From: Phycisphaerae bacterium | GTDB taxonomy: Bacteria > Planctomycetota > Phycisphaerae > UBA1845 | Assembly: GCA_963666835.2 (NCBI GenBank) | Contig: CAXXGO010000006.1 | Coordinates: 2,610,493 to 2,674,492 of the forward strand | DNA: 64,000 nucleotides | Direction: 5' to 3' | Shown: one piece after another, positions 3,958-20,613 of the stretch | How the letters are laid out: each line of letters starts with the position of its first letter | Position numbering within the stretch: the first letter of the stretch is position 1 | Made by a program: the position numbers and the translations under genes | The notes under the pieces: model-generated | What the model was told of the DNA's origin: nothing | The model's database searches: none | The model's input: the letters and a program-made list of their open reading frames with translations, nothing else

Positions 3958-6900
3958 CTAGCGTCTGTTCTCAGGACGCGCCGGTTTTCGCGAGACGGGT
4001 TCATCGATGGGCGTCGCCTCGTCCGCCATAAGTTGCAGGAATCTGTCCGGGATGGTAATGCTCCGATCTTGGGCAAACAGGGCGATGTCATTGGCGTCGA
4101 GGATGCCGTTGCCGTCGAGATCCGCGGCTTGCGCGGCAGGCATACCGACTGTCAGAGCAATGTCATGAACGGTAGCACTCGAATGCCCGATCCCGGCCAG
4201 CTCTTGTTGCTGTGCCGGCGATAGGTTGCCTACGCCTGCCGGTTGAATCCGGTAAGCCGTTTGGTTGCCGCGCGGCTCCGCTATCAGGTTCGAGGCGTAC
4301 ATCAGTGTCCGGCATCCGGCTCCCGGGTCATCACCGGTCTTGAGGAAGTTGATCAGGATGCAGAGGAAGTCATTGGTGGTGACGATTCCGTCGCAATCGA
4401 AGTCGGCGTGATACGGCGGGGGAGGACCAACCAGCTCATCTTCGCACCGGGTTATCACCGGGGTCGGCCAGGTCAGGTATTGCCTGAACAGGATTGCGTA
4501 ATCGGTGATGTCGACGACGTTGTTGTTGTCAGCATCTCCGCAGCGCAGTTGGTTGGCGGCCGTTAGGTCGGCTACGAATTGCCCGCCCGCCGGGCGAAGA
4601 TGGACCGTACGCCGAAGCGTGTGCAGGTCGTCTTTCACGCTGAGGCAATCCCAGGTTCCGTACGGTACGTCGAGGGATGCCGAGGCAACACCGTTCTGGA
4701 ACGTCAGCTCTTCTGCAAACGTGGTTTCGGAGGCGGTGCCCGGGCAGGGGACCCCGCAACTACTCAGGACGAAGCTGAGGCAGCGCGGACATTCCCCGTT
4801 CAGCTCCGCGGCTTCCGACCGGACTATCAGGTCGAGGATGTTGTCACCCCCGACAACAACTGTCTGTTGGTGGGTCGCAGAGCTGCCTTGGGGATCGGTG
4901 GCCGTCCAGGTTAACGTGGTCGTGCCTACGGGGTATTGATCGTTCCAGCAGTCCAACCCGTCATCGCGCTCACAGGTCGCCGAACATGACCCGCAGTTGT
5001 CCTCGCAGGTAGGTTCGCCCGGGTCGACGTGAGCTCCACATTCGCCCGGGTCGGGGGTAGCCTCGACGTCGGGCGGCGAGGCAACCGTGGGAGCTTGGCA
5101 ATCGTCCACGATAACCGTTTGCCGGCATGTGGTCAGGTTGCCCGAAGGATCGGTAGCCGTCCAGGTCAAGGTGGTTGGTCCTACCGGATAGGGGTCGTCT
5201 TCGCAGTCCTCACTGTCCTCCCTGCTACAGGTTACCGTGCATGCGCAGTTGTCGGTACACGCAGCCGACCCGGGGAAGACCACCGCCTGACACTGATCCG
5301 GATCGTTGCACTGCTCGACGTCAAGTGGGCACTCGATTTCCGGATGTTGTTCGTCGCTGACCGTAACCGTCGTCGTGCATGTGGCCGTGTTGCCCGCCTC
5401 GTCGGTTGCCGTCCACGTCAATGTAGTAACCCCGACGGGATAGGATGCGCTCTGGCAGTCCTCGCCGTCGTCGCGCGAGCAGGACGTCGTGCAATTGCAG
5501 GCATCAGTGCAGGTGGGCTCCCCGGGGTCAATTGCGATTTCACACGCATCGGGATCGACCGTGGCGGGGAGAGGGTCGCTCGGGCAGGTCAGGATCGGCG
5601 GGGAGTCATCGACTATAAACGGGATCTCGTCACCCAGCAGCGGGAAGTTCTGAGTGCCCAACGAGTCTGCCAGGTGTGTTGGAGATTCGTGATCGAGATC
5701 GAAAGCAATCGAGCCGTGGCCGGTACCGGCTCCGGCCGGCTTGGTCGACAGTAATAGCGTGGCCATTGGGTTGTCAGCCGCGGAGGCGGCTTCACCCAAG
5801 GGAATAGCCACCGCGTATGCGATAGTGCCGGTGCAGCCGTCCACCGAGACCGCCTTGAAGATCTCGGCGGAGAACGGAGACAAACCGGAGGTCGGACACG
5901 GGGAGATCCCCGGGACGGAATGATCACCCGGGGCTATGGCCAGCAGATCGAGTAAGCATGCGTCGTATTCCAGGAAGAACTGCCCACCGATCATGTCCTG
6001 TCCGTAGAGATTGCGTACGTCAATCGTGACGCACAGATCTTGCCCGGACGAAAAGCAGGTCCTTTCGTTGTGCAGATTCAGCTCCAGCAACCCGCAACTG
6101 ACCGGATCGCTCGTACATACGGCGGTCTCTTCGTCGCAGAGGTCCGCCGTACACGCGATGCCGTCGTCGCATAAGCTGATGCCGGGCGTGCAGATGCCCG
6201 CCTCGTTGCAGAACTCGTCACCATCGCAAACGAGCCCGTTAGGGCATGGCGTGCCGGCGGGTTCATAGTTGGGCAAACACTCGCCGTCGCCGTTGCAGGT
6301 GTCGGGATGATCACAGGTGGAATCGGCGGGATCACCACATGGTGTGCCCGATGGTAACAGCACATACGTGCAGCCTTCGATTGGGTCGCACGAGTCCTCG
6401 GTACACTCGATTTCATCATCGCAGACGAGGGGGCCTTCCGAGACGCAGCCGGCTGTAGTGTCGCAGTACTCGACGCCCGTGCAGGCGTCACCGTCGTCGC
6501 ACATCTCGTGAAACGGTACATGCTCTCCACATTCGTCCGTTACTTCATCACAACTGTCGCTGGTACACTCGATTCCGTCATCGCATCGAGTGACGCCGGG
6601 CTGGCATGTTCCGGCCCCGTCACAGGTTTCGTCGCCGTCGCACCATAGACCATTGGAGCATGGTGCTCCCAGCGGCTCGATGTTCTCGTCGCAGTTGCCG
6701 GTGCCGTCGCAGGTGTCCGGTCTGTCACATGCGCTATCGCTCGGATCACCGCATGCCGTCCCCTGCGCCACGCCGGGGTGGATGCAAACGCCGCTGTTGC
6801 AGACGTCGTCGGTACATTCATTCCCGTCTTCAGTGCAACCGGTGCCGTCCGGTTCGTGGTTTGGCAGGCACACGCCCGCTCCGTTGCAGGTGTCGGGGGT

Positions 6901-8892
6901 AGTGCATTCGTCGTCTGTAGGATCACCGCAAGCTGTGCCGATCTCGCGGTTCGGGTGGATGCACACCCCGCTGGCGCAAACGTCGTCAGTGCATTCACTT
7001 CCGTCATCGGCGCAGTCGGTGCCGTCCGGCTCGTGGTTTACGAGGCACTCGCCCGCTCCGTCGCAGGAATCCGCTGCCGTGCAGGCATTGTCGGTCGGAT
7101 CTCCGCACGGGGTCCCGACCTGTTTGTTCGGGTGAGTGCATCCGCCGGCTAAGCAAATATCGTCTGTGCACTCGAAGCCGTCATCACTACAGGCGGAATC
7201 GTCCGGCATGTGATTGTCCAGGCAAGTCCCGGCACCATCGCACGTGTCCGGGGCCGTGCAATCCGTGTCCGCCGGATCGCCGCAGACCGTCCCGGCCGGG
7301 TGTGGCGGATAGACGCATAGGCCTGCGTCACACGTGTCGCCCGTGCAGGCGTTTCCGTCTTCCGGGCAGTCCTCGTCTAGGCAACATTCGGCCGCGCAAC
7401 TGGCGGTGTCGGCGCAGCATACCGGCGTGGGCTCGCTGCACGGGGCAGTGCCGGGTTGGCAATAGCCGTCGACACATGTCTCGGTACCGTTGCAGAACTC
7501 CCCGTCGTCGCAGTCGACCGGCGCGGGGCACGTTACCAAAGCGCACGCCTGGCCGTCAAACCACGTGCCTCCCGCTGCGGTACAATCCGTCTCAGAAACT
7601 GCGTCCGTGCAGCCCTCTTCACATTCGTGGCAGCACGCCCCGTCGTGCAGCGGTTTGATGTTCCGCAGTAGATACTCATCCGCTGTATAGCAGGCGGTCG
7701 AGGGACAGGCTATGTTGTCCAACGCGTACCAGGCTGTTTCCGGGCTGCCCCACCCGTAGTTGATATGGTATTGAGGCGAGCCGCCGGTATCTTGCCAGCC
7801 GTCGCAGATTACCGTATGACCAGTCAAGCCGTATATCATCGGTCGGCCGGCGTCGATCTCCGCGCGGATCAAACCGAACCAGTCTTCGGCCGTGTATGCG
7901 TCGCGTTCCTCTCTGATCATCCCCGGGTCAAAGCGGAAGTGGGTTGTGAGCACTTCTGACGCCGTTGTGGTTGAGGGGTACGATTGGCATTTACCGAAGT
8001 CGGTCCTCAAGGCTACGGCGACCTCGTAACAAAGCTCCGCTACGGCGGCTTCCTGTTCGGTGGAACAACCCGCCGTGCACTCGGTTGGCATGTTGGACCA
8101 ATCGTAGGGGTCAGAGAAATCTGCGGCCAGGTTACTCCCTGGCACGAGCGGGCCGCACGAGTCGTCGCCGTCCCAAGTATAGAAGCCGTCCGGGAGTGGG
8201 TAGTTGCCGACCCCGGCCGGGGGCCACTGGTGGAAGTTCAACACTTGGGCAACTGCCGTGGCTATACCGGTCAAACGTGTTCGTGCTCCGTCCCCCATGG
8301 GGCACAAGTTGTTATAGGGGGCCGTAGGATGCCACGAAGTTGTCAGCAAAGGGCCCGCCTCCGCCAGGCCCCCGTTTGCTTTCACGGCCGGGCTTTGGGC
8401 GAGGAGCTTTGGAGGTGCGGTAAGCCGGTCCCATTCCTCTCGATCGGCTCGGTTGAACAACACCGAACCGGTGGCCGGCTGTAAGGCGTCAAGGCTGCCG
8501 TAACGCTGTTGATAGCGGGCGAATCTGTTCTTAAGATCCTTACGAAGAAGCTGCGGCAGACCGTCGGTTCGACTCAGGTCGAGGTCGCCGGCGTCGGAAT
8601 AGGCGTGGATTGGCGGAAGTTCCTTCAATGCCGGCACGACGACGTAGCCGTCGGGCGAAATGGAGTAGCAGCTTGCGACCCACTGTTGTCCGGTGAAGAT
8701 CCGGCGGGCCTGGGTGATGCTCGGCCTCGAGCTGCCGGCCCAGGTTCCGTCTCGTTGGACCGAATCGGCAAGCCAGTTCAGGCATACGGTCTGCATTTCC
8801 TGTTCGGTGGGTACTTCGCCGCGCGCTGGTAACACCATCGTAATGGACGAGCTTAAGGCTAGGGTAAACGCAACAAGGATCGTCATTCGCAT
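3958..8892 (-). CDS. Large secreted multidomain protein: C10 (streptopain-like) prodomain and peptidase fold, Cys-rich repeats, cohesin-like domain, three HYR-like domains, dockerin-like C-terminus
   Basis: GGAGG RBS before ATG 8892; signal peptide; 'GPLLTTSWH..PYNNLCP', 'GHTVICDGW', 'YHINYGWG'; three 'YPVG.TTLTWTATD' repeats; paired 'GDADNNNVVDITD'/'ADFDCDGIVTTND' Ca-binding loops. Confidence 0.8.
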   Translation of the reverse strand: MRMTILVAFTLALSSSITMVLPARGEVPTEQEMQTVCLNWLADSVQRDGTWAGSSRPSITQARRIFTGQQWVASCYSISPDGYVVVPALKELPPIHAYSDAGDLDLSRTDGLPQLLRKDLKNRFARYQQRYGSLDALQPATGSVLFNRADREEWDRLTAPPKLLAQSPAVKANGGLAEAGPLLTTSWHPTAPYNNLCPMGDGARTRLTGIATAVAQVLNFHQWPPAGVGNYPLPDGFYTWDGDDSCGPLVPGSNLAADFSDPYDWSNMPTECTAGCSTEQEAAVAELCYEVAVALRTDFGKCQSYPSTTTASEVLTTHFRFDPGMIREERDAYTAEDWFGLIRAEIDAGRPMIYGLTGHTVICDGWQDTGGSPQYHINYGWGSPETAWYALDNIACPSTACYTADEYLLRNIKPLHDGACCHECEEGCTDAVSETDCTAAGGTWFDGQACALVTCPAPVDCDDGEFCNGTETCVDGYCQPGTAPCSEPTPVCCADTASCAAECCLDEDCPEDGNACTGDTCDAGLCVYPPHPAGTVCGDPADTDCTAPDTCDGAGTCLDNHMPDDSACSDDGFECTDDICLAGGCTHPNKQVGTPCGDPTDNACTAADSCDGAGECLVNHEPDGTDCADDGSECTDDVCASGVCIHPNREIGTACGDPTDDECTTPDTCNGAGVCLPNHEPDGTGCTEDGNECTDDVCNSGVCIHPGVAQGTACGDPSDSACDRPDTCDGTGNCDENIEPLGAPCSNGLWCDGDETCDGAGTCQPGVTRCDDGIECTSDSCDEVTDECGEHVPFHEMCDDGDACTGVEYCDTTAGCVSEGPLVCDDEIECTEDSCDPIEGCTYVLLPSGTPCGDPADSTCDHPDTCNGDGECLPNYEPAGTPCPNGLVCDGDEFCNEAGICTPGISLCDDGIACTADLCDEETAVCTSDPVSCGLLELNLHNERTCFSSGQDLCVTIDVRNLYGQDMIGGQFFLEYDACLLDLLAIAPGDHSVPGISPCPTSGLSPFSAEIFKAVSVDGCTGTIAYAVAIPLGEAASAADNPMATLLLSTKPAGAGTGHGSIAFDLDHESPTHLADSLGTQNFPLLGDEIPFIVDDSPPILTCPSDPLPATVDPDACEIAIDPGEPTCTDACNCTTSCSRDDGEDCQSASYPVGVTTLTWTATDEAGNTATCTTTVTVSDEQHPEIECPLDVEQCNDPDQCQAVVFPGSAACTDNCACTVTCSREDSEDCEDDPYPVGPTTLTWTATDPSGNLTTCRQTVIVDDCQAPTVASPPDVEATPDPGECGAHVDPGEPTCEDNCGSCSATCERDDGLDCWNDQYPVGTTTLTWTATDPQGSSATHQQTVVVGGDNILDLIVRSEAAELNGECPRCLSFVLSSCGVPCPGTASETTFAEELTFQNGVASASLDVPYGTWDCLSVKDDLHTLRRTVHLRPAGGQFVADLTAANQLRCGDADNNNVVDITDYAILFRQYLTWPTPVITRCEDELVGPPPPYHADFDCDGIVTTNDFLCILINFLKTGDDPGAGCRTLMYASNLIAEPRGNQTAYRIQPAGVGNLSPAQQQELAGIGHSSATVHDIALTVGMPAAQAADLDGNGILDANDIALFAQDRSITIPDRFLQLMADEATPIDEPVSRKPARPENRR
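6700..7330 (-). repeat. Intragenic tandem Cys-rich repeats (~60 aa / 180 bp unit)
   Basis: Repeated 'GT.CGDP.D..CT.PDTCDGAG.CL.NH.PDG..C.DDG.ECTDD.C..G.C.HP' in the translation; boundaries approximate. Confidence 0.8.
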
Positions 8893-9095
8893 AGCAGGTT
8901 CCTCCGATGTTAGATGAAAACGCTGTCGTGCCGATGACAGCAGAAATCTCCGTGGCAGATGCCAGAGGCATGTGAGTAGATGTCTTCCTGGCTTCGCGAC
9001 ATTGAATGTCCACACTCCGGCTGTTGATAGGATTACTGACAGACCGTAACACAAGAATATGCCCAGTGTTTACTTGCGCACAAGAGGGCTATTGA

Positions 9096-9393: not shown

Positions 9394-9466
9394 TGGAGCC
9401 GAGCGGGCTCGAACCGCCGACCTCCTGGTTGCAAACCAGGCGCTCTCCCAGCTGAGCTACGGCCCC
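9394..9466 (-). tRNA. tRNA-Ala(UGC), CCA not encoded
   Basis: Reverse complement GGGGCCGTAGCTCAGCTGGGAGAGCGCCTGGTTTGCAACCAGGAGGTCGGCGGTTCGAGCCCGCTCGGCTCCA; cloverleaf, TTCG T-loop, anticodon TGC. Confidence 0.97.
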
Positions 9467-11112: not shown

Positions 11113-11424
11113 ATGATGCAGTTCCGACGAGTTAGGGGGCGAGGGAAAGCGGGCCGTCGCCGGTCGAAGCGTTGGAGGACGGACAAGCCGATTGAATGGC
11201 GGATCTACCGCGGGCGGCGGATTCGCGACGGTCGAGTTATAGAGCGATCTTTAGAGGGATTAGTCCTTGCCGCCGCGGGCGATGCCCCCGCCTCGCCCGG
11301 GATGCGTTTCTTCGTCAGCGGGCCGAGTCCGATCGAGCAGCACGGATTCAAATCAGCCGTAGTCCGCCGAACCGCAATCCGGGCCGACGGACGCCGTTTG
11401 ATGTTCGCCGAGATCGAGGCGTGA
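11113..11424 (+). CDS. Small PilZ-like protein (degenerate motif)
   Basis: RRRSKR followed by 'ERSLEG'; start uncertain (ORF is open from 11038). Confidence 0.45.
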   Translation: MMQFRRVRGRGKAGRRRSKRWRTDKPIEWRIYRGRRIRDGRVIERSLEGLVLAAAGDAPASPGMRFFVSGPSPIEQHGFKSAVVRRTAIRADGRRLMFAEIEA

Positions 11425-11443
11425 CCATCATTGCAGAACGCGC

Positions 11444-11570
11444 GGGTGCCCCATGTCCTTTCGTGTTTAGGATGTGTGGCCCATGTCCTCTTGTGTCTAG
11501 AGCGTGCTGCGATTCGTCGCAGATCGTGCAACGCCAAACACGTCGGACATGGGGGAGCCGATGACGAGCA
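11444..11570 (-). repeat. REP-like repeat family B, copy 1
   Basis: Reverse complement reads tcatcggctcccccatgtcc...aggacatgggccac, matching the copies at 50775 and 51142. Confidence 0.65.
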
Positions 11571-11729
11571 CGCGACATTGCAGCAGATCTCGTTCGTCGA
11601 CCTGCATTACACGGTGGGAAGTGTCCACATGATGGCATGCTGCTTTGAAAGGCGATTGTGATTCGCCGGTCACCAGGGCGATTCGTCCCCCCTTGCTGGG
11701 GAGGTTAGGCACCTGCGGTCGAAAGGGCG

Positions 11730-12158
11730 TCAGAGTGTCAAGACCGTTATCGCAGTGTGTCCGAGAATCAGGGCCCACAGGATCACCGTGAGACGCGCGC
11801 CAAACCGCTTCACTGATCGCTCGGCGCGTGCCTCAAGCGTACCTGCTGCTGCTGCCGCCAGAAGTAGCTGCAGCGGAAAGAGAAGAAACGGACCGGTCAG
11901 CCAGTTCACTTCTACACGATCGACGGTACCGCGAATCTCGTCAACAAAGACGTACGCAATGAACCACGGGATCGTTGCCAAAAGGAGTATGCGGAAGAAC
12001 CTCCGCAGAGGCCAACGCCGCCTGGCGTATACCGCTACCTCGCGCGAAGTAAACGCTTGTCCGCACTCCGGGCAGCGCGGTTCCACAAGTCCTCGTAAGT
12101 CGTAATCGCAGTTTGGGCAACGACCCTCAGTTTGCACGGCTGAGCAGACCTCTTTCAT
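11730..12158 (-). CDS. Zinc-ribbon membrane protein (cassette 1)
   Basis: CPNCDYDLRGL..RCPECG followed by about three hydrophobic helices. Confidence 0.75.
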   Translation of the reverse strand: MKEVCSAVQTEGRCPNCDYDLRGLVEPRCPECGQAFTSREVAVYARRRWPLRRFFRILLLATIPWFIAYVFVDEIRGTVDRVEVNWLTGPFLLFPLQLLLAAAAAGTLEARAERSVKRFGARLTVILWALILGHTAITVLTL

Positions 12159-12402
12159 CAAGAAACCTCGATCTCCGTGGTCGTCGGCGCTTGTGTAGTT
12201 TACGCGTCAAGCATGGCCAGGCAACTGCGGACCATGCCACCAGTCAGGTTGCTCGTAAGATACGAAAGACCCCACCACATGATGCAATCATACTACCAGA
12301 CAGTTCTGGACTCCACCATTCGCACGAGCGGAGCTCCATCCTTGCTACGAAGCACGTCGCACCAGTTCAACGGAGAAGTCTATCCTTGCCCGCGAGACTG
12401 TG

Positions 12403-12957
12403 TCAACCGACTCGTAGCAGACAGGAGAGAACCAGGTAGGGCAGCAAGACGCTGAGAGACGACACACAGAACAGCTTAATCAGGTAGGGACGCGTCGGCA
12501 ATGACAGACGAACCAGAGAAACCGCGTACCAGGTCGACAGCGCAACGCATGTCGCCGGTATGCTCAACACCGCAAGTAACGCCCACGTGTCCGGTGGATT
12601 TGCCGGAATGCCAATGCATGCGGTAGGAAAGACGAGCGGCCCCATCAGGGCAAACACGCCGATATCCGGATATAGAGCAAAACAGATCAACGTCGGTCCG
12701 CAAAAGGCGAGAGCGTTGAGGACGAGTTGCACGACAGTGACTCGCCAGCGGTGGTTTCGCCAGTAGGTCGCCCAGCGGGCCGCGGGCTCATTAGACTTCG
12801 CCACCGGCGTGCCACATTCCGGGCACAATCCGTATAGACCCAGCGTTCGGAGATTGTACCCGCATTCCATGCATTGCAGATCGCGAACAATGGTCCGCCG
12901 TTTCGGAGTCTCAGGCGCGACATCAGTATTGTCCTTATCCGGCAGCATCCTTCGCAT
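12403..12957 (-). CDS. Zinc-ribbon membrane protein (cassette 2)
   Basis: CMECGYNLRTL..LCPECG followed by about four hydrophobic helices. Confidence 0.75.
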   Translation of the reverse strand: MRRMLPDKDNTDVAPETPKRRTIVRDLQCMECGYNLRTLGLYGLCPECGTPVAKSNEPAARWATYWRNHRWRVTVVQLVLNALAFCGPTLICFALYPDIGVFALMGPLVFPTACIGIPANPPDTWALLAVLSIPATCVALSTWYAVSLVRLSLPTRPYLIKLFCVSSLSVLLPYLVLSCLLRVG

Positions 12958-13011
12958 TTCTCCAAGGCGGTCCGAAAGGCAAGCACGGGCGCCCCATCTC
13001 TTCAGGGCAGC

Positions 13012-13135
13012 GGGTGCCCCATCCTTCGCCCCCGGCGAAGGGTGGGGAATGGACCCGCGTTCTCTTCTGACAAGCTCCTGCAGCCGCCCAGTGTAGTTCT
13101 TTCGGACGGGTGGCCCATCTCTTTAGAGGTGGGGA
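13012..13135. repeat. Repeat family A (REP doublet), copy 1, right part truncated or variant
   Basis: GGGTGCCCCATCCTTCGCCCCCGGCGAAGGGTGGGG hairpin followed by ...ctgacaagctcctgcagc...gtgtagttctttc. Confidence 0.85.
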
Positions 13136-13160
13136 ACTCTCACGGTCGGTGGCAGTGCAT

Positions 13161-13574
13161 CTACGTCTTCTCTCGATTGCCCAACAGTACCGGATCGAAC
13201 GGCGTGCCACACTCGGGGCATCGAGGGGTAGGAAGCCCGCAAAGCGAGTAGCCACAAACCAGACAGGTAGGGCTCTCGCTCTCCTCACGATGCGAGCTTG
13301 GCACGGTGCCAACGAGCACCGCGCACACCGCGAGACACAGCACAAGCGCGGGCACCGTGAAGCCCAGTGACTGCACCAGCAGGTCCTCCCAATTGGACGG
13401 AAACTCGTACGCGAGCTGCCCCACCCGACGTTCCCGGGTCCCGACCACGATCGCGCCCGGCGCGCCGACCACAACTACTGATAACACGAGGAGCACCTTA
13501 TGTCGAACCCGTCGAAGGAGGAAGCACAGATTCAACACGAGCAAGGCCGAGGCAATAGCGAAACACCAGATCAT
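13161..13574 (-). CDS. Membrane protein with C-terminal zinc ribbon (cassette 3)
   Basis: ATG 13574 with upstream GGAG; three hydrophobic segments; CLVCGYSLCGL..RCPECGTPF. Confidence 0.75.
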   Translation of the reverse strand: MIWCFAIASALLVLNLCFLLRRVRHKVLLVLSVVVVGAPGAIVVGTRERRVGQLAYEFPSNWEDLLVQSLGFTVPALVLCLAVCAVLVGTVPSSHREESESPTCLVCGYSLCGLPTPRCPECGTPFDPVLLGNREKT

Positions 13575-13599
13575 CGCGTTGACGTCCCCACTCCGGCAC

Positions 13600-13638
13600 G
13601 GGCGCCCCATCCTTCGCCCCCGGCGAAGGGTGGGGGGA
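13600..13638. repeat. Repeat family A copy 2, left part (5' exon of the intron)
   Basis: GGGCGCCCCATCCTTCGCCCCCGGCGAAGGGTGGGGGG. Confidence 0.85.
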
Positions 13639-15563
13639 AAGCGCCGGTAAGCCGGTGAGGAGTAGTGGATGAGAGAGCCATACGGTGAAGGAATAGCGAA
13701 CCACACCGACCCCGAGTCATACTGTGGTGTCCGCAAGGGCATGGCGGGAGCGTTGACAGGGGCACGTGCGGGCCGGCCATTGAGCCGTGAAAGCCTTTTA
13801 CTCCGGAGTGCCGACGCCGTCCCCCAAGGCGGAAGGCAACACCGGAGGGCGTCGTTAACGCGAGACGCCTTTCGGACTCCGCGCGGTCTTAGAACCCGAG
13901 CACGCACGGAAACTCCTCACGCGGAACCCGGGAGATCCCGCGTTCGGCCTCGAACATGGCATCGAGGTCCGCAGTGTGAATCCATAGGAGCACGACACTG
14001 ATGCACGGGCGCGGGAAGTCGGACAGGCCCATAGTACCGAAGAAGACTGCGAACAACGGTGATCCCCCGGCGGGGAGGTCGTCCGCGGAGCAGTTGGAGG
14101 AAAGGGGCCTGGCCAAGGGCAACTCGATTCGACACGACAGGCACCGTACGCAGAGCCGGGATCGTCTGCAAAGCGGGTTGGATCGGGTACGACAGGCAGC
14201 GGTAAAGGATAAGGATTTACAGTTCACCACGCTTTGGCACCATGTCTATGATGTCGCTCGCCTCCGGGAGGCGTACTTGAGCCTCAAGCATGCTTCGGCA
14301 CCGGGGATGGACGGCATGACATGGGAGGCGTACGGCAGGGACCTAGAAGAACACCTCTTGGATCTGTCGGCACGTCTACAGCGCGGAGCGTACCGAGCGA
14401 GGCCGGTCAAGCGGGTCTACATTCCGAAACCCGATGGACGGCAGAGACCAATAGGGATTCCCGTGTTGGAAGACAAGATCGTCCAACGGGCGATGACCGA
14501 TGTGCTCTCGGCTGTCTACGAGGCAGACTTCCTCGGGTTCTCCTACGGATTTCGACCAGGACGGGACGCCCATCAGGCGTTAAGTGCCCTGACTGTCGGC
14601 ATCGAGAGGAAGAAGGTGAATTGGGTGCTGGATGCAGACATTCGTGGATTCTTCGATGCCATAGACCACGATTGGCTGATCAAGTTCGTCGAGCACCGGA
14701 TCGCAGACCAGCGTGTCGTGCGTCACGTGAAGAAGTGGCTGAACGCCGGCGTGCTGGAGGACGGGTGTCGAAGGGACACGGAGACGGGGACGCCGCAGGG
14801 GGGCAGTATCAGCCCGCTATTGGCGAACATCTATCTCCATTACGCCTTCGACTTGTGGGCCCGCCAATGGCGACGGACGCAAGCTCACGGAGATGTGATT
14901 ATCGTGAGATATGCGGACGACTTCGTGGTGGGATTTCAACAGCGAGAGGATGCCGAGCGGTTTCGGGATGAGCTGACGGATCGCCTCCGGAAGTTCAAGC
15001 TGGAGCTACATGCGGACAAGACTCGTCTGATTGAGTTCGGCCGTTTTGCGTCGACCAATCGCAAGCGAGAAGGCCGCGGCAAACCGGCGACCTTCGAGTT
15101 TCTGGGTTTTCGCCACATCTGTGGCAAGACCCGGCGTGGGAGGTTCACGGTACTACGGCAGACTGTCGCGAAACGACGGCGTGCGAAGCTCAAAGCGATT
15201 AAGCAAGAGCTTCGGCGACGTATGCATGCCCCCGTCCGAGAGGTGGGCGCGTATTTGCGGGCGGTGGTTCGCGGGTACTATCAGTATTATGCGGTACCGC
15301 GGAACTACCCGGCCTTAACGGCATTTCGGGATGAGGTTGTCCGTCTTTGGCGCTGGACGCTCCGGCGTCGTAGCGAGAAGACTCGGATTACCTGGGCCCG
15401 CATGAACCGTTTGGCCAAGCAGTGGATACCTGCTCCCAAAATCCTACATCCTTACCCCGACCGACACCTGGCCGTTATGACCCAAGGCAGGAGCCCAGTG
15501 CGGTAGTCCCGCACGCTGGGATCTGTGGAGGGGGTCCCGGGTAACCGGGATTCCTACTCCGAC
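13639..15563 (+). mobile_element. Group II intron (resembles bacterial class E), inserted inside repeat family A
   Basis: Domain V GAGCCCAGTGCGGTAGTCCCGCACGCTGGGATCTG with AGC triad; domain VI ends ...ctactccgAC at 15563; the flanks rejoin into a family A repeat; 5' boundary +/-2 nt. Confidence 0.9.
14001..15506 (+). CDS. ltrA: Group II intron reverse transcriptase/maturase (no endonuclease domain)
   Basis: IPKPDGRQRPIGIP, FSYGFRPGR, LDADIRGFFD, GTPQGG.ISPLLANIYL, RYADD and FLGF motifs, plus a maturase domain. Confidence 0.96.
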   Translation: MHGRGKSDRPIVPKKTANNGDPPAGRSSAEQLEERGLAKGNSIRHDRHRTQSRDRLQSGLDRVRQAAVKDKDLQFTTLWHHVYDVARLREAYLSLKHASAPGMDGMTWEAYGRDLEEHLLDLSARLQRGAYRARPVKRVYIPKPDGRQRPIGIPVLEDKIVQRAMTDVLSAVYEADFLGFSYGFRPGRDAHQALSALTVGIERKKVNWVLDADIRGFFDAIDHDWLIKFVEHRIADQRVVRHVKKWLNAGVLEDGCRRDTETGTPQGGSISPLLANIYLHYAFDLWARQWRRTQAHGDVIIVRYADDFVVGFQQREDAERFRDELTDRLRKFKLELHADKTRLIEFGRFASTNRKREGRGKPATFEFLGFRHICGKTRRGRFTVLRQTVAKRRRAKLKAIKQELRRRMHAPVREVGAYLRAVVRGYYQYYAVPRNYPALTAFRDEVVRLWRWTLRRRSEKTRITWARMNRLAKQWIPAPKILHPYPDRHLAVMTQGRSPVR

Positions 15564-15739
15564 ACTGATCCGCATTCGTTTCTGACAACCTCCTGCAGCT
15601 ACCGAGTGTAGTTATTCCGCCCCGGTTTGGTCAAGCAGGTCTCCGCACGCGCGATGAACCGGTGTAGATGGGGGCCTGATTCGCCGGTAAGCGAAGCGAT
15701 CCGTCTCCCACGCTCGGTGCGCGAAGAAGTGAGGCACGC
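15564..15739. repeat. Repeat family A copy 2, right part (3' exon)
   Basis: actgatccgcattcgtttctgacaacctcctgcagc...gtgtagtt...ccggtttggtcaagca...aaccggtgtagatg...gatccgtctcccacgc...aagtgaggcacgc. Confidence 0.85.
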
Positions 15740-16248
15740 TACCAAGACAACCTGAAGACGAACGGGCGGAACGCCAACGATTCGAAGAATGACCACACGG
15801 CCAGAAGAAACACGATCCTGATCCGCCATCGCCAATCACTGCGCATTGACTCATAGCTAGCGAAAGTCAGTATTGCCAATGCTACGCAGATGCCAAGGCA
15901 GAGATTGCCGAAGCTGGTTGCCCCCAATCCTGGGCGCACATCGAGCACGCTGAGGAACAGCCAAACGGGGGCGAGAAGCACATCACGTGCGTGAATACGA
16001 AAACCACTGAGACCCACGAGAAGCAGTAGGGCGGGCAGGTAGAACGCGGAGGCATTGATCGGCACAATGAACAGGAGGCTCCGCCATCGCGGAGAGGCTG
16101 CCTCCGGCTCAGACGTAGAGTCGACGACGTCCGTGCCGCATTCCGGACAACGTCCCGTCAATCGAAGTGTGCGTAGATTGTACCCACAACCAACACACGA
16201 GACATCATCGTCAACGCATTCTCTTTTTCGTTCGCCCGTATCGCCCAC
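15739..16248 (-). CDS. Zinc-ribbon membrane protein (cassette 4)
   Basis: CVGCGYNLRTL..RCPECG followed by about four hydrophobic helices; start approximate (GTG). Confidence 0.7.
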   Translation of the reverse strand: MGDTGERKRECVDDDVSCVGCGYNLRTLRLTGRCPECGTDVVDSTSEPEAASPRWRSLLFIVPINASAFYLPALLLLVGLSGFRIHARDVLLAPVWLFLSVLDVRPGLGATSFGNLCLGICVALAILTFASYESMRSDWRWRIRIVFLLAVWSFFESLAFRPFVFRLSW

Positions 16249-16267
16249 CGCAGAAAACCCCACCAGC

Positions 16268-16475
16268 GGGTGCCCCGTCCTTCGCCCCCGGCGAAGGGTG
16301 GGGGATGGCCCCGCGCTGACTTCTCGACAAGCCTTCGCTGTCGCCTGTTGTAGTTCTTTCGCTCCGGTTTGGTCAAGCACGTCTCCGCATACGGGATGAA
16401 CCGCTTGGGAAGGGGACTGCATTCTGCCCGAGGCGATCCGCCACCCCCCCCTTGCTGCGCAAGCATGGGGCGCCC
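16268..16475. repeat. Repeat family A copy 3 (complete doublet)
   Basis: Left arm GGGTGCCCCGTCCTTCGCCCCCGGCGAAGGGTGGGG; conserved spacer; inverted right arm cccccttgctgcgcaagcatggggcgccc. Confidence 0.85.
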
Positions 16476-16554
16476 ACGCGAATAGGCTCGGAGTTGGCTC
16501 CCTGCATCAACGGACTGCCAGGCGGTTCCGGGATTATCTGCCATCGTGGTGCAA

Positions 16555-17040
16555 TCAGGTAGACGGCGGAAACTCAAGTGGACAATGAGGCGGTTGTCCA
16601 TCCACCGGAACATGCTTCTCCCAGGCCCCGTTGTCTTCTTCCTCCCAGTAGACGGCGCCGATGTCTGCACTCAGAAGCCACAGCCTACTATCAGTGTCCC
16701 AGTCGACGTTCCACGAGGATGTTCCGGCAGCTACCGACTCCACGTCCAAGACAACGGCACCTGTTTCGGCGCGACAGATCAAGAACCCGACCGGTCCCGT
16801 ATCATCGTGCCTTGTTGAGCCTGTCCAGACAAAATGACGGCCGTTGGGCGCCAAGGGGACTTTCCGCGGTGATCTCCAACCGGCATCTGTGACGCCTCTA
16901 TCCACTTTCTCAAGACGCGCCTGCGCGAGCTTATACAAAGCGCGGTTCCTGCTGCGCTGCCTCTCCGTACACGAATACACCTGTATGCCGATCACGGCCA
17001 GGCCGATGATGTACGCGACACCTGAGACGATAGACCGCAT
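16555..17040 (-). CDS. Hypothetical membrane-anchored protein (cassette 5)
   Basis: N-terminal hydrophobic helix from ATG 17040; Trp-rich beta-strand C-terminus (WNVDWD..RLWLLSADIGAVYW). Confidence 0.6.
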   Translation of the reverse strand: MRSIVSGVAYIIGLAVIGIQVYSCTERQRSRNRALYKLAQARLEKVDRGVTDAGWRSPRKVPLAPNGRHFVWTGSTRHDDTGPVGFLICRAETGAVVLDVESVAAGTSSWNVDWDTDSRLWLLSADIGAVYWEEEDNGAWEKHVPVDGQPPHCPLEFPPST

Positions 17041-17142
17041 GATCCCAGAACCCCCTGTGTCTTCATGGTCGGTACGTCTCCACATGCCGGCGGCTGACGG
17101 GCTACTCATCGAATCGAGTTCATCACTCGCACGGTCCTTCCG

Positions 17143-17394
17143 GGCTGGCGTTCCATCCGCCGCCCGCAGCGGAGAATGACGGACCCGGAGCCGAACACAC
17201 GGTCCGAGTTCGCAATGAGCTTCGTCGACACGCCTTGTGGGCCGACGCATACTGTTGTACAGTTTCCTGCCGTCTTCGGCTGCACTTCCTTCACCCTGGT
17301 TTCGTCAAGTAAGTTCCCGAGAGCAGGATAAGCCGGTGTGGATGGTGGCCGGGTTTCGCCGGCTACCGTGTCGATCCGTCCCCCACCCTTGCTA
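17143..17394. repeat. Repeat family A copy 4 (degenerate left arm, clear right half)
   Basis: ctggtttcgtcaagt...ccggtgtggatggtggcc...taccgtgtcgatccgtcccccacccttgcta; the stop codon of cassette 6 lies within the right arm. Confidence 0.75.
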
Positions 17395-18033
17395 TAGCGA
17401 GATTCCCAAGTGCTCGCGCGATGGCGTGTCGTGCTCTTTGTGGTAACGGATCAGTGAGGGATCGCTCTCGGCAGCTTCAGCGTATTCAGCCGGGCGAACT
17501 TTCTTGCTGCGGATATAGTACTCCGGGTATCCCGGTCGTAATCTACCGTCCTCTTGCCATTCTCGAACAACACCGTGGAGTCGTCCGCGCTGCCAGAATC
17601 GCTCGGTATAGACCTGCATTCCGTCCTCATTCCACCAGAGTTTGCACCCGTGATGGAGTCCATCGACAATATGCCTTTCCTCTGCGATTTTACCGTTCTC
17701 GTGCCACCAAATGTCCAGGCCAGTACCATTCGACATTTCGTACGTGCCGAGCAATGCGCCGTCGATACCGAACTGCCTCGCAACGCCGTGCTCCTTGCCG
17801 GTTTCGAAATGCGTCTTAAACCTGAGAATACCATTGGAGAACCAACGTCGCAGTGATCCCTGGCGGATTCCGCCGGACATCATCACCTCTTCAATGACTG
17901 CGCCCGTCTCGTCCCTGATCCGCCTCGCGATTTCCTCACCTGCGACAAAGCACGCATGCACGGTGTCGCCGTACTCATCGAGAGTGAGCAGACGCTCGTC
18001 AACACCCTCAGGTATGTCGCTCGGGTAAGCCAT
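17392..18033 (-). CDS. MORN-repeat / YwqK-like antitoxin or immunity-type protein (cassette 6)
   Basis: Repeated 'G.RQG..RRWFSNG.L', 'WWHENGK', 'GLHHG..WWNEDG', 'GRLHG..REWQEDG'. Confidence 0.7.
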   Translation of the reverse strand: MAYPSDIPEGVDERLLTLDEYGDTVHACFVAGEEIARRIRDETGAVIEEVMMSGGIRQGSLRRWFSNGILRFKTHFETGKEHGVARQFGIDGALLGTYEMSNGTGLDIWWHENGKIAEERHIVDGLHHGCKLWWNEDGMQVYTERFWQRGRLHGVVREWQEDGRLRPGYPEYYIRSKKVRPAEYAEAAESDPSLIRYHKEHDTPSREHLGISL

Positions 18034-18068
18034 TCTTTGCCGCGATTCTCCGACGTTGGCCAAGCTGC

Positions 18069-18434
18069 GGGTGCCCCGTCCTTCGCCCCTGGCGAAGGGT
18101 GGGGAATGGATCCGGAACCTGCTTCAGTCAGCGAATGCCAAACGTGGTCCGCCCGTACGTTGAGCAATGCGACGTTCACAGCGTGCCGATCTTGTACTGT
18201 TCCTGGTTGTAGTTGCTTCGGCCGGGTTTGGTCAAGTGAGTTTCCGCAAGCGGGATCAACCGGTGTAGATGGTGGCTGAAGTCCGCCCGTTACCGTGTCG
18301 ATCCGTCCCCCACCCATTCCGGCGGGGAGTCGGCATGGCTACGGCAGCTCGGCAAACGCCGGAATGAATGGGGTACCCGCCTGGTTACCGTGTCGATCCG
18401 TCCCCCACCCTTGCTACGCAAAAGTGGGGCACCC
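18069..18434. repeat. Repeat family A copy 5 (complete, with internal duplication)
   Basis: Left arm at 18069; right arm ccccacccttgctacgcaaaagtggggcaccc ends at 18434; ttaccgtgtcgatccgtcccccaccc occurs twice (~18290 and ~18385). Confidence 0.85.
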
Positions 18435-18462
18435 TCCTGTGGGTTGCCGAATTGGTTACCGC

Positions 18463-20613
18463 CTACTTCGACTCGCCGAACTTGATCGTCGTTCCCTCCG
18501 TGGCCGAGCGGACGGCCGCGAAGCTGGCTTCGGTGACCATTTCCAACTCCGCAAACGGGATGGGCGGGGCGCCGCCTTCGGTAACGCGTTTGATGAACGT
18601 GGCCACCTCGGCCTTGTGCCCCTTCTCCTGGCGGATCTTCATCTTAGGAGCGCCGGGCCAGCCGAAGGACTCCAACTGCCGCCAATTGTCGATTACCAAA
18701 ACGCGCCCCTCGCTGAAGATCTCCACGCGTTCCTTGGGATACGACTTCGGTCCGTTGGCCAGGTAATGCACGGTTCCGATGGAGCCGTCGGCGAACGTCA
18801 TGTTGATCGTCATCTTGTCGTCGCGAATGCCGCCGGTTTCCGGCCCGAACATCACGGCGCTGGTTGACGAAATCGGGTGGCCTACCAGAAAGAGAATAAG
18901 GTCGATGAAGTGGCAGCCCTCGCCGATGATCCGGCCGCCACCGACTGCCGGATCGTGATGCCAGGAGTCCGGCGGGATGTCCCCGGCGTTGACCATCATG
19001 GTAATCGCCACCGGCTCGGCGCGGCCGGCAAGTAGCTGTTTCGCCTTGACCGCGTGAGGAGCGAACCGCCGATTGAATCCCACCATTACAAGCTGGTCCG
19101 GATGGCGCGCGTGAGCTTCACGCACCAGCTCCAATCCTGCATGGTCGATGGCCAGTGGCTTCTCGATGAACACGTGTTTGCCGGCGTCGAGGGCTTCGGC
19201 GGCCATCGTGGCGTGCGTGTGGTGCGTCGTACTGACAAAGACCGTGCCGACATCCGGCGACTCGATAACCGCGCGGTAGTCCGTGGCCGTCTCCGCAGCT
19301 TCGAACTTCTGCCCGGCGTGCGCGGCAGACACGCCGCCGGCACTGGCGATCGCGTGGATGGGAATCCCGGTCTCTTTGATGGCCGGAAGAAGGACCAGCT
19401 TAGTGAAGTTGCCGGCGCCGATGACGCCGACTCCTGCGCGGCTTGGCCTGGCTGAGACGGTTGGCGCTTTCGGCCTGCGGATCACCCGGTTGGTTGGCGG
19501 GGGTTGATCCGGATAGGTCAGCACCACACCCAGCGCGCTGTTGTCATTCAGGATTATGTCGTAGGCGTCTTCGGGGCGAGCTTGTTCAATGCGTTTCGAG
19601 ATCAGCGACTCGGCATCCAGTCTCTTCTGGGCTATCGCATCGAGAATCGCCTCGAAGTTCCGTGCCACCGTCCAACGAACATAGGGCAACGGGTAGTCCT
19701 GTACCCTCTGCTCGTAGGCGCTGTCGTAGCGACCCGGTCCGTACGAACAAGACACCTGGAACGACAGCTCCTTCTCATAGAAATCAGCTCGACGCAGGTT
19801 GAGGCCTATGACCCCGACGAGGACTATCCGGCCGCGCTTGCGGCACATCTCCGTGGCCTGATGAATGATCTCATCGCTTTTGGAGGAGGCCGTGATAATG
19901 ACCCCGTCGACCCCGCGACCCTGGCTGAATGCCGTGGCCGCGACGACCGGGTTGGTTCCCTCGGAGACAGTCAGCGTGCGACATCCGAACTTCTCGGCGA
20001 GCTTGCACCGTTCACCGTTGACGTCGATCCCCAAGACGTTGGCACCATTAGCGCGGAGAAGCTGGGCGGCAATCAGACCCAGGAGCCCCAGCCCCACTAC
20101 GACGAAATCTTCCCCTAAGGTCGGCTCCGCGAGACGGACCCCGTGCAGGGCAATCGCTCCGAGAACCGTCAGGCTGGCCTCGTCGTCCGATACTCCGTCC
20201 GGGATTCGCGCGGCCAGGGTCGCGGGCACGTGGACCATTTCCGCATGTGCGCCGTTCGAGGCCACGCGGTCCCCGATGGAGAAGCCCTGCACTCCGGCCC
20301 CGACTTCGACAACCCGTCCGACATTGCAGTAGCCCAGCGGGAGCGGCTCGTCGAGCCGGCTGAAGACCACCTCCAGCGTCGGCAGCAGACCGTCGGTCTT
20401 AACCTTCTGAAGCACCTGGCGGACTTTGTCGGGCTGGGCTCGAGCCTTGCCGATCAACCCGGCCTGGCTGAACTCGACTAAGGAGCGCTCGGTCCCGGCG
20501 GAGATCAGACTGCGTGTCGTCTGAATCAGCAGGTGCCCGGGCGACACTTTGGGACAAGGGACGTCCGCCAGCTCGATCTGCCCACTCCGAAGATGCTGCA
20601 AAACCTGTTTCAC
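18463..20613 (-). CDS. Bi-domain oxidoreductase (Zn-type dehydrogenase plus Gfo/Idh/MocA), of the kind found in polysaccharide clusters
   Basis: 'SLISAGTE', 'GLGLLG', 'YEKEL.FQVSCSYGPGRYD', 'IGAGNF', 'EKPLA', 'GFNRRF'; GTG start with GGGAGA RBS. Confidence 0.9.
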   Translation of the reverse strand: MKQVLQHLRSGQIELADVPCPKVSPGHLLIQTTRSLISAGTERSLVEFSQAGLIGKARAQPDKVRQVLQKVKTDGLLPTLEVVFSRLDEPLPLGYCNVGRVVEVGAGVQGFSIGDRVASNGAHAEMVHVPATLAARIPDGVSDDEASLTVLGAIALHGVRLAEPTLGEDFVVVGLGLLGLIAAQLLRANGANVLGIDVNGERCKLAEKFGCRTLTVSEGTNPVVAATAFSQGRGVDGVIITASSKSDEIIHQATEMCRKRGRIVLVGVIGLNLRRADFYEKELSFQVSCSYGPGRYDSAYEQRVQDYPLPYVRWTVARNFEAILDAIAQKRLDAESLISKRIEQARPEDAYDIILNDNSALGVVLTYPDQPPPTNRVIRRPKAPTVSARPSRAGVGVIGAGNFTKLVLLPAIKETGIPIHAIASAGGVSAAHAGQKFEAAETATDYRAVIESPDVGTVFVSTTHHTHATMAAEALDAGKHVFIEKPLAIDHAGLELVREAHARHPDQLVMVGFNRRFAPHAVKAKQLLAGRAEPVAITMMVNAGDIPPDSWHHDPAVGGGRIIGEGCHFIDLILFLVGHPISSTSAVMFGPETGGIRDDKMTINMTFADGSIGTVHYLANGPKSYPKERVEIFSEGRVLVIDNWRQLESFGWPGAPKMKIRQEKGHKAEVATFIKRVTEGGAPPIPFAELEMVTEASFAAVRSATEGTTIKFGESK

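Follow-up and report, generated by a model that had tools for sequence, protein, structure and literature searches.

A 64,000-nt stretch of DNA from a Phycisphaerae bacterium (assembly GCA_963666835.2, contig CAXXGO010000006.1, forward-strand positions 2,610,493 to 2,674,492; hereafter the window, to which positions without a prefix refer) carries at 11730-18434 an array of six short minus-strand genes and five repeat units (u1 to u5) that are very likely relics of mini-REPtrons, i.e., internally deleted REPtrons in which inward-facing repetitive extragenic palindromes (REPs) enclose what is left of a REP-associated tyrosine transposase (RAYT) gene. The unit, which is non-autonomous, combines a REP hairpin, whose foot GGGTG is unpaired, with the decayed 5' portion of the cognate RAYT (Y1/HUH) gene and an inverted REP. 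At least five copies of one deletion derivative were made within 7 kb, and these subsequently drifted as non-coding DNA. The initial annotation, made from the letters alone, had described REP doublets acting as cassette boundaries in an integron-like array. Its six open reading frames, its same-orientation units in five consecutive gaps, and the contact of the gene stops at 15739 and 17392 with right arms were all recovered, and its reading of RAYT-type REP doublets, instead of attC/IntI, that tightly bracket unrelated small genes held. The arms proved to be dispersed through the genome and the spacer to be a dead RAYT, only u3 and u5 were complete, and a group II intron filling the gap 13574-15739 had been overlooked.

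The spacer between the arms, previously taken for a conserved element of the site, is a decayed RAYT 5' end on the plus strand spanning codons 1 to ~55. A DNA profile of 11 RAYT genes matched it on the plus strand. A profile built from the first 195 coding bases scored 5.4 (u5), 18.6 (u4), 19.4 (u3), 16.2 (u2), and 5.0 (u1) bits, each above 300 of 300 dinucleotide shuffles, and gave no match in the control spacers u0 and uR. The alignment of u4 and u5 to RAYT codons 1-55 was gapless, and u1 to u3 have additionally lost codons 1-13 by a second deletion. The u5 relic runs from an ATG at 18135, 30 nt past the arm and thus spaced like intact REPtrons, to ~18299, with two in-frame stops and an end at ~codon 55 just before the HUH motif. 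The five relics formed one clade (support 100/99) in which neighbouring units paired (u4+u5, 85/79; u1+u2, 97/93), with a mutual likeness of the units of 59-68%. Differences between u4 and u5 were spread evenly over the codon positions (21/19/24) compared to 9/5/27, 10/9/37, and 11/10/33 in pairs of intact RAYTs, indicating that the relics diverged as non-coding DNA. A RAYT 5' relic between REP arms, and a single clade of such relics, identify each unit as an internally deleted REPtron copied locally, so that every unit contains the "missing" transposase in relic form.

The spacer was specific to the locus, with four strong nhmmer matches in the genome, all in the array, plus the u1 stub (profile hidden Markov models, HMMs, of the arm were built from regex matches). 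No match to the spacer pattern was retrieved from JGI metagenomes, and the matches in seven of 40 related genomes did not extend across the spacer part. A structured RNA or riboswitch was rejected as its identity, as Rfam matched nothing in the region except the intron.

Two units are complete on the plus strand. These are u3 (16268-16475), with a left arm, a relic of RAYT codons ~14-54, and an inverted right arm, and u5 (18069-18434), with a left arm at 18069-18104, a short leader, the relic, and two inverted right arms (18308-18378 and 18403-18434). The remaining three, all on the same strand, are eroded. Unit u4 (17143-17397) retains an eroded left arm (17143-17178), codons 1-55 (17208-17372), and half a right arm that overlaps the stop of gene 6. 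In u2, the left arm (13600-13636) is the 5' exon of the intron and the remainder (15564-15738) holds codons ~14-55 and a degenerate right arm (15707-15738). Unit u1 (12987-13104) consists of a degenerate arm, a left REP arm at 13012-13047, and codons ~14-29 without a right arm, and is terminated by a sister-family REP of the GGGTGGCCCA type (13108-13134, plus strand). The sixth, eroded copy suggested earlier at 12161-12403 had neither a RAYT-profile match nor another blastn match in the genome. Beyond gene 1, an eroded right end (3' junction and inverted arm; family D12) lies at 11659-11713 on the minus strand and had no RAYT-profile signal, and the left edge of the array is marked by a genome-dispersed sister-family REP element of the GGGTGCCCCATGTCC type (11444-11563, plus strand). 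Elsewhere in the genome, C6:877751-877973 is a separate, shorter mini-REPtron with RAYT codons 1 to ~29 between inward arms.

The arms belong to a REP family (family A) with 101 HMM matches in the genome (61 plus, 40 minus), seven in the array and 94 elsewhere. This contradicted the view that they are special to the array. They are scattered across ordinary intergenic regions in both orientations, which is one half of the observation named in advance as contrary to a cassette array. Folding of the arm gave a perfect hairpin with a 14-bp stem and an unpaired GGGTG foot, and none of 200 shuffles equalled its stability; the dispersed extragenic copies, including inverted doublets, conform to REP/REPIN-RAYT systems. 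The canonical GT[AG]G tetranucleotide foot is absent, which places the REP outside the GTAG families in the definition of PMC6006769. Among copies outside the array, the outer end faces a stop codon in 45, and in 19 of these the stop is within 60 nt, marking stop-abutting as a general habit of family-A REPs. Genes adjacent to REPs were somewhat smaller than average (median 258 vs. 324 aa, p 0.013; gene calls made in this analysis). Most family-A REPs were concentrated at 320-880 kb of C6, and the family was found in seven of the 40 related genomes. The repeat with the highest copy number in the genome was of the GTAG-foot type (554-586 regex matches) and surrounds a RAYT-like gene at C6:1294700-1296300; a second additional RAYT-like gene was identified at C1:1403300-1404100.

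The cognate enzyme was found in relatives. In genome G022, inward-facing family-A arms flank a 191-aa Y1/HUH gene (L078) that passes NF047646 (REP-associated tyrosine transposase) with 94 bits against a cut-off of 80. Of 31 loci examined, 12 encoded RAYTs of at least 49% identity, and these had family-A arms in six cases (by regex) and sister hairpins in the other six (by eye), co-oriented at loci L084 and L088; neither was present at any of the 19 more distant loci. A cognate RAYT flanked by the same REP therefore exists in relatives, and the window's genome holds relics only. Apart from members of other clades, its assembly (92% complete) yielded one broken 5' piece at C1:743552, and an intact RAYT of the clade in question was not found. 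The Y1 genes of this genome were discarded as candidates for the cognate enzyme since family-A REPs were found at none of their nine loci.

Internally deleted REPtrons were also observed in relatives, at unlinked sites, where such derivatives get copied as units. Among 20 relic loci read, one pair was identified in each of two genomes: L165/L176, 87% alike over 427 nt, and L183/L184, 94% alike over 316 nt, each pair with one junction in common and unrelated flanks. None of the 20 loci displayed the alternation of relics and genes seen in the array, and intact REPtrons of this clade were seen at eight loci of relatives among ordinary genes, one of them (L123) after three small genes. Genome G205 (C1; L120:6500-11550) harbours three intact REPtrons of another clade in alternation with the same pair of small genes in a 1,578-nt period, together with an inverted fourth REPtron, and had 13 RAYT-profile matches in all. 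In the window's own genome, a paralog family (128-174 aa, 51-88% alike) has a family-A REP 19-41 nt past each gene at three loci (C6:830343-833435, 1774811-1775577, and 2182537-2184627), all downstream of a conserved gene of 390-400 aa. The G205 array and this three-locus family indicate that gene-plus-repeat blocks amplify.

Unit u2 is split by a group II intron of 1,927 nt (13637-15563, plus strand) that almost certainly homes to this REP, by a mechanism suggested by established group II intron biology. It was recognized by Rfam RF02005 (169 bits) and, at 15489-15563, by RF00029 (36.9 bits, under the 40-bit cut-off), and encodes a 501-aa reverse transcriptase (RT)/maturase at 14001-15506 on the plus strand (TIGR04416, 370.6 bits, cut-off 300; Pfam RVT_1) in which no endonuclease domain was detected. 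The features of a group II intron were found, namely an RT/maturase in domain IV, domains I, V, and VI, and pairing of exon-binding site 1 (EBS1) with intron-binding site 1 (IBS1). EBS1 (CCCCCA, 13821-13826, plus strand) lies in a hairpin loop and is complementary to the REP end TGGGGG, the IBS1 formed by the final six bases of the u2 left arm. All 12 full copies in the genome, at least 99.8% alike, were inserted at GGGTGGGGG/A of a family-A REP. A candidate EBS2 (CCUUUU, 13794-13799, plus strand), whose position is suggested by relatives, pairs at five of six positions with all 12 invaded exons. The genome offered 888 free TGGGGG-A sites, 58 of them in REPs, and 85 sites, 41 in REPs, when the candidate EBS2 was also required, such that pairing explains much, perhaps not all, of the REP preference.

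In related introns, the EBS1 loop changes together with its target, which fixes the unusual GAAAG 5' end. Ends other than GUGYG also occurred in L031, L035 (G014), and L032 (G024), as GAAAG or GAUGC, pointing to a trait of the lineage. Close relatives whose EBS1 loops differ mostly occupy non-repeat sites; the 5' exon and the EBS1 loop could both be read in nine related introns, of which one (L031) lies after a hairpin resembling a REP, as judged by eye. All 10 intron copies of C6 lie on the plus strand (p 0.0007 vs. strict sites; 0.01 vs. HMM copies). A lagging-strand preference was considered but not adopted: the strand bias is real, yet the GC skew, which is positive over the rest of C6, is near zero at C6:1-800000 and around the eight copies located within 320-880 kb. 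The fold of domain V, with a 5-nt loop, fits groups IIE/IIF, for which such a loop is described (PMC3753933), and domain VI has a bulged A. Truncated 3' intron pieces with non-REP downstream flanks were observed at C7:69127-69536, beside a frame that we take to encode an IS110-like transposase, and at C7:94469-94520. Another type of group II intron (44% RT identity) lies directly after a zinc-ribbon gene at C6:1064145-1068437 (L048), and similar sequence at C6:567995 follows another zinc-ribbon gene.

The genes between the units are short and minus-stranded. Gene 1 (11730-12161, 143 aa) has an N-terminal zinc ribbon and a hydrophobic C-terminal half (Pfam matches below cut-off) and is separated from gene 2 by a spacer with no repeat or relic (12162-12402); a sigma-70-like match was located at 12406-12377 on the minus strand. 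Gene 2 (12403-12957, 184 aa) and gene 4 (15739-16248, 169 aa) encode zinc-ribbon proteins with hydrophobic C-terminal parts and are each other's closest paralogs (47% over 68 aa), and gene 3 (13161-13574, 137 aa) encodes a hydrophobic protein with a C-terminal zinc ribbon. The zinc-ribbon motif of genes 1-4 occurred 60 times in the genome; as only four of these matches lay between relic units, all in the array, zinc-ribbon genes were rejected as general REP cargo. Gene 5 (16555-17040, 161 aa) is an orphan with an N-terminal hydrophobic stretch and with no match in Pfam, NCBIfam, or PADLOC (atlas below 0.9), and it alone was recovered among 66 candidates. Gene 6 (17392-18033, 213 aa) encodes a MORN-repeat protein that may be YwqK antitoxin-like (MORN_2 29.1 bits, under the 29.6 cut-off; atlas 0.95). 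It was likewise the only one recovered among 244 candidates, and none of 27 candidates from JGI metagenomes was confirmed. Searches for defence systems gave no matches. G+C content at third codon positions (GC3) was 0.61-0.65 in five of the six genes, at or under the fifth percentile of the genome (0.658). To the left of the array, the window contains a 1,698-aa secreted-type protein with peptidase C10, cysteine-rich repeats, HYR, and dockerin-like domains (3958-9054), and a tRNA-Ala(TGC) at 9394-9466, 2.3 kb from the array.

The flanks of the array are not syntenic in family members. The 101-aa gene of the left flank was present in three of 40 family genomes, with a different neighbour at the one locus read, and neither REP nor relic was found downstream of oxidoreductase homologs at 13 loci, one with only 39 nt readable. 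Strain variants were sought in contigs from four of the seven listed runs, which were short and broken at repeats, and the joints given are among those listed. In runs X5 and X1, a u1 allele had no relic (joint 12997-13105, 91-letter side) and gene 2 still adjoined gene 3; this only variant with long contig support alters the repeat and keeps the order of the two genes. A contig from run X3 joined 11422 to a short family-A arm resembling the one at 18067 (42 letters, 20 between), in the place of the 11444-11563 element of the window. The joint ends within the repeat (likeness 88) and is explained equally by loss of the array and by a different REP at 11444. Gene 4 had no coverage in run X3, unlike its neighbours; as no contig ran across gene 4, this was not counted.

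The array was probably formed by local copying together with repeat-mediated duplication and exchange, the most likely of the courses considered and one held with moderate confidence. Most likely, the copies would have hopped locally at a time when a RAYT was still active in trans, and the array may be the place where the genome's own family-A RAYT decayed. As direct repeats, the units would have allowed gene-plus-unit blocks to be duplicated, deleted, or exchanged by recombination, and poorly adapted accessory genes may thereby have accumulated between them. Later, an endonuclease-less intron with an EBS1 matching the REP would have entered the u2 arm and 11 other REP copies, at the sites described above. 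The array accordingly resembles an accessory-gene hot spot on mobile repeats and not an integron, which would have an integrase and an insertion site dedicated to it.

Several observations weigh against local copying and duplication. Different genes sit between sister units, and since genes 5 and 6 are unrelated, plain duplication does not suffice. All relics share a single orientation, and u3 falls outside the u1+u2 pair despite the second deletion common to u1-u3. Left arms lie 20-36 nt from the start codon in four of five units, compared to a distance of 60 nt or less for three of 29 copies outside the array (Fisher p 0.0035, dependent on the start codons chosen), an arrangement that looks cassette-like. 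The assembly holds no intact cognate RAYT, so mobilisation in trans is an inference, and the scores of u5 and u1 are low in absolute terms, with four of 3,000 random windows reaching 4 bits.

The points on gene content and arrangement bear most on a cassette mechanism, in which the RAYT would cut single-stranded DNA beside REP feet, excise circles of a gene plus a mini-REPtron, and re-insert them at a REP, so that the array grew gene by gene. It is an unlikely course but the best placed of the alternatives. The genes are short, tightly bounded, unrelated, uniformly oriented, and low in GC3 in five of six cases, one (gene 6) is antitoxin-like, and TnpA-REP cleaves and transfers strands in vitro (PMC8266576). 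However, units as eroded and as unlike one another as these are not what maintained recombination sites would look like, the intact cognate RAYT was not found in the assembly, and in relatives the clade's REPtrons stand among ordinary genes with no alternation at relic loci. The alternating REPtron/gene array of G205 and the X3 contig also speak for cassettes, but the G205 cargo copies are identical, which indicates amplification; the X3 joint is explained equally by a different REP at 11444, and the well-supported variant changed a repeat and left the gene order intact. On a wider and similarly doubtful reading, REPtrons and their gutted derivatives would constitute an HUH-run gene-capture platform in Phycisphaerae-like bacteria, of which the array is a decayed and G205 a live form, with an intron specialised on REP sites as other introns are on attC.

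A role in expression appears still less probable. The relics would be domesticated promoter modules, each providing an antisense sigma-70 promoter for the next gene with the 20-36 nt leader outside the unit. Such a promoter could be proposed in u2, where antisense TTGACC-18-TACACT (15634-15605) faces gene 3; the genes leave no room for promoters of their own, and a stop-creating change forming a -10-like box is common to u2, u3, and u5. Nevertheless, one of four long spacers passed the scan and the region had 5 matches vs. 2.2 +/- 1.4 in shuffles, the -35-like box is the antisense of RAYT Val-Lys codons, u1 has lost the box, and the intron places 1.9 kb between the u2 promoter and gene 3. A genuine integron array that lacks its integrase (CALIN) and was invaded by REPs later is hardly credible despite its co-oriented short genes and short leaders, because a simple motif scan of 11401-18500 found no RYYYAAC...GTTRRRY pair in any spacer and matches only within the intron frame, the Rfam match is the intron alone, and no integron integrase was found over the cut-off in the genome (TIGR02249, 10 matches, best 89 bits vs. 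265); the initial annotation had likewise had none in view.

Compared to described systems, the array is a variant of the REPtron/REPIN and group II intron. It shares with REPtrons and REPINs (PMC3116915, PMC3733652, PMC8266576) an unpaired 5' foot, a perfect hairpin, inverted doublets, about 100 intergenic copies, and a cognate RAYT between inward arms (here in relatives), and tandem REPIN clusters are known (PMC3116915). It differs in its foot (GGGTG vs. GTAG), in a doublet interior that is a RAYT fragment instead of a short spacer, and in units that alternate with genes. TIRtrons/TIRYTs and class 3 TnpA-Y1 from Planctomycetes and Acidobacteria (PMC3733652; PMC6006769) similarly form dispersed families in which non-GTAG inverted repeats flank Y1, whereas the tags given in the accessible text (GGGGWSAS, CnGA foot) do not match the array REP; the repeat may be listed in the figures or supplements of those papers. 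Prochlorosin clusters (bioRxiv 10.1101/2020.03.09.984088) also interleave small variable genes with whole and truncated tnpA-REP but, as far as the accessible text describes them, with a single gene family, another RAYT subclass, and mainly C-terminal fragments. Integrons and CALINs resemble the array in co-oriented short genes, short leaders, and one repeat per gap, and differ since the array has no IntI or attC cores and its repeat is a dispersed REP with a transposase relic; the integron analogy is unproven.

The intron is similar to group IIE/IIF introns (PMC3753933) in its endonuclease-less RT/maturase, EBS1-IBS1 pairing, 5-nt domain V loop, and bulged A in domain VI, and, like IIC-/IIB-attC introns (PMC7923331) and REP-targeting insertion sequence elements (PMC1525189), it lives on another mobile repeat. 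It is distinguished from these by its target, a RAYT-type REP, and by the 5' end GAAAG. The literature searched, which lacks most subscription papers, yielded no report of REP-homing group II introns or of internally deleted, copied REPtrons.

How REPs are moved by RAYTs in living cells is still open (PMC8266576; PMC3337134). Mini-REPtrons demonstrate unit-wise copying of REP-bounded pieces 200-430 nt long, and the unique deletion junction makes each copy a natural tag. They offer a route from a RAYT gene to a REPIN-like doublet, and transposition could be assayed on them as a defined substrate. Should genes be carried along with them, RAYTs would gain a host-useful role as cassette movers. 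For the intron, a dispersed REP family can act as a safe, renewable homing site that is reached via a change of EBS1.

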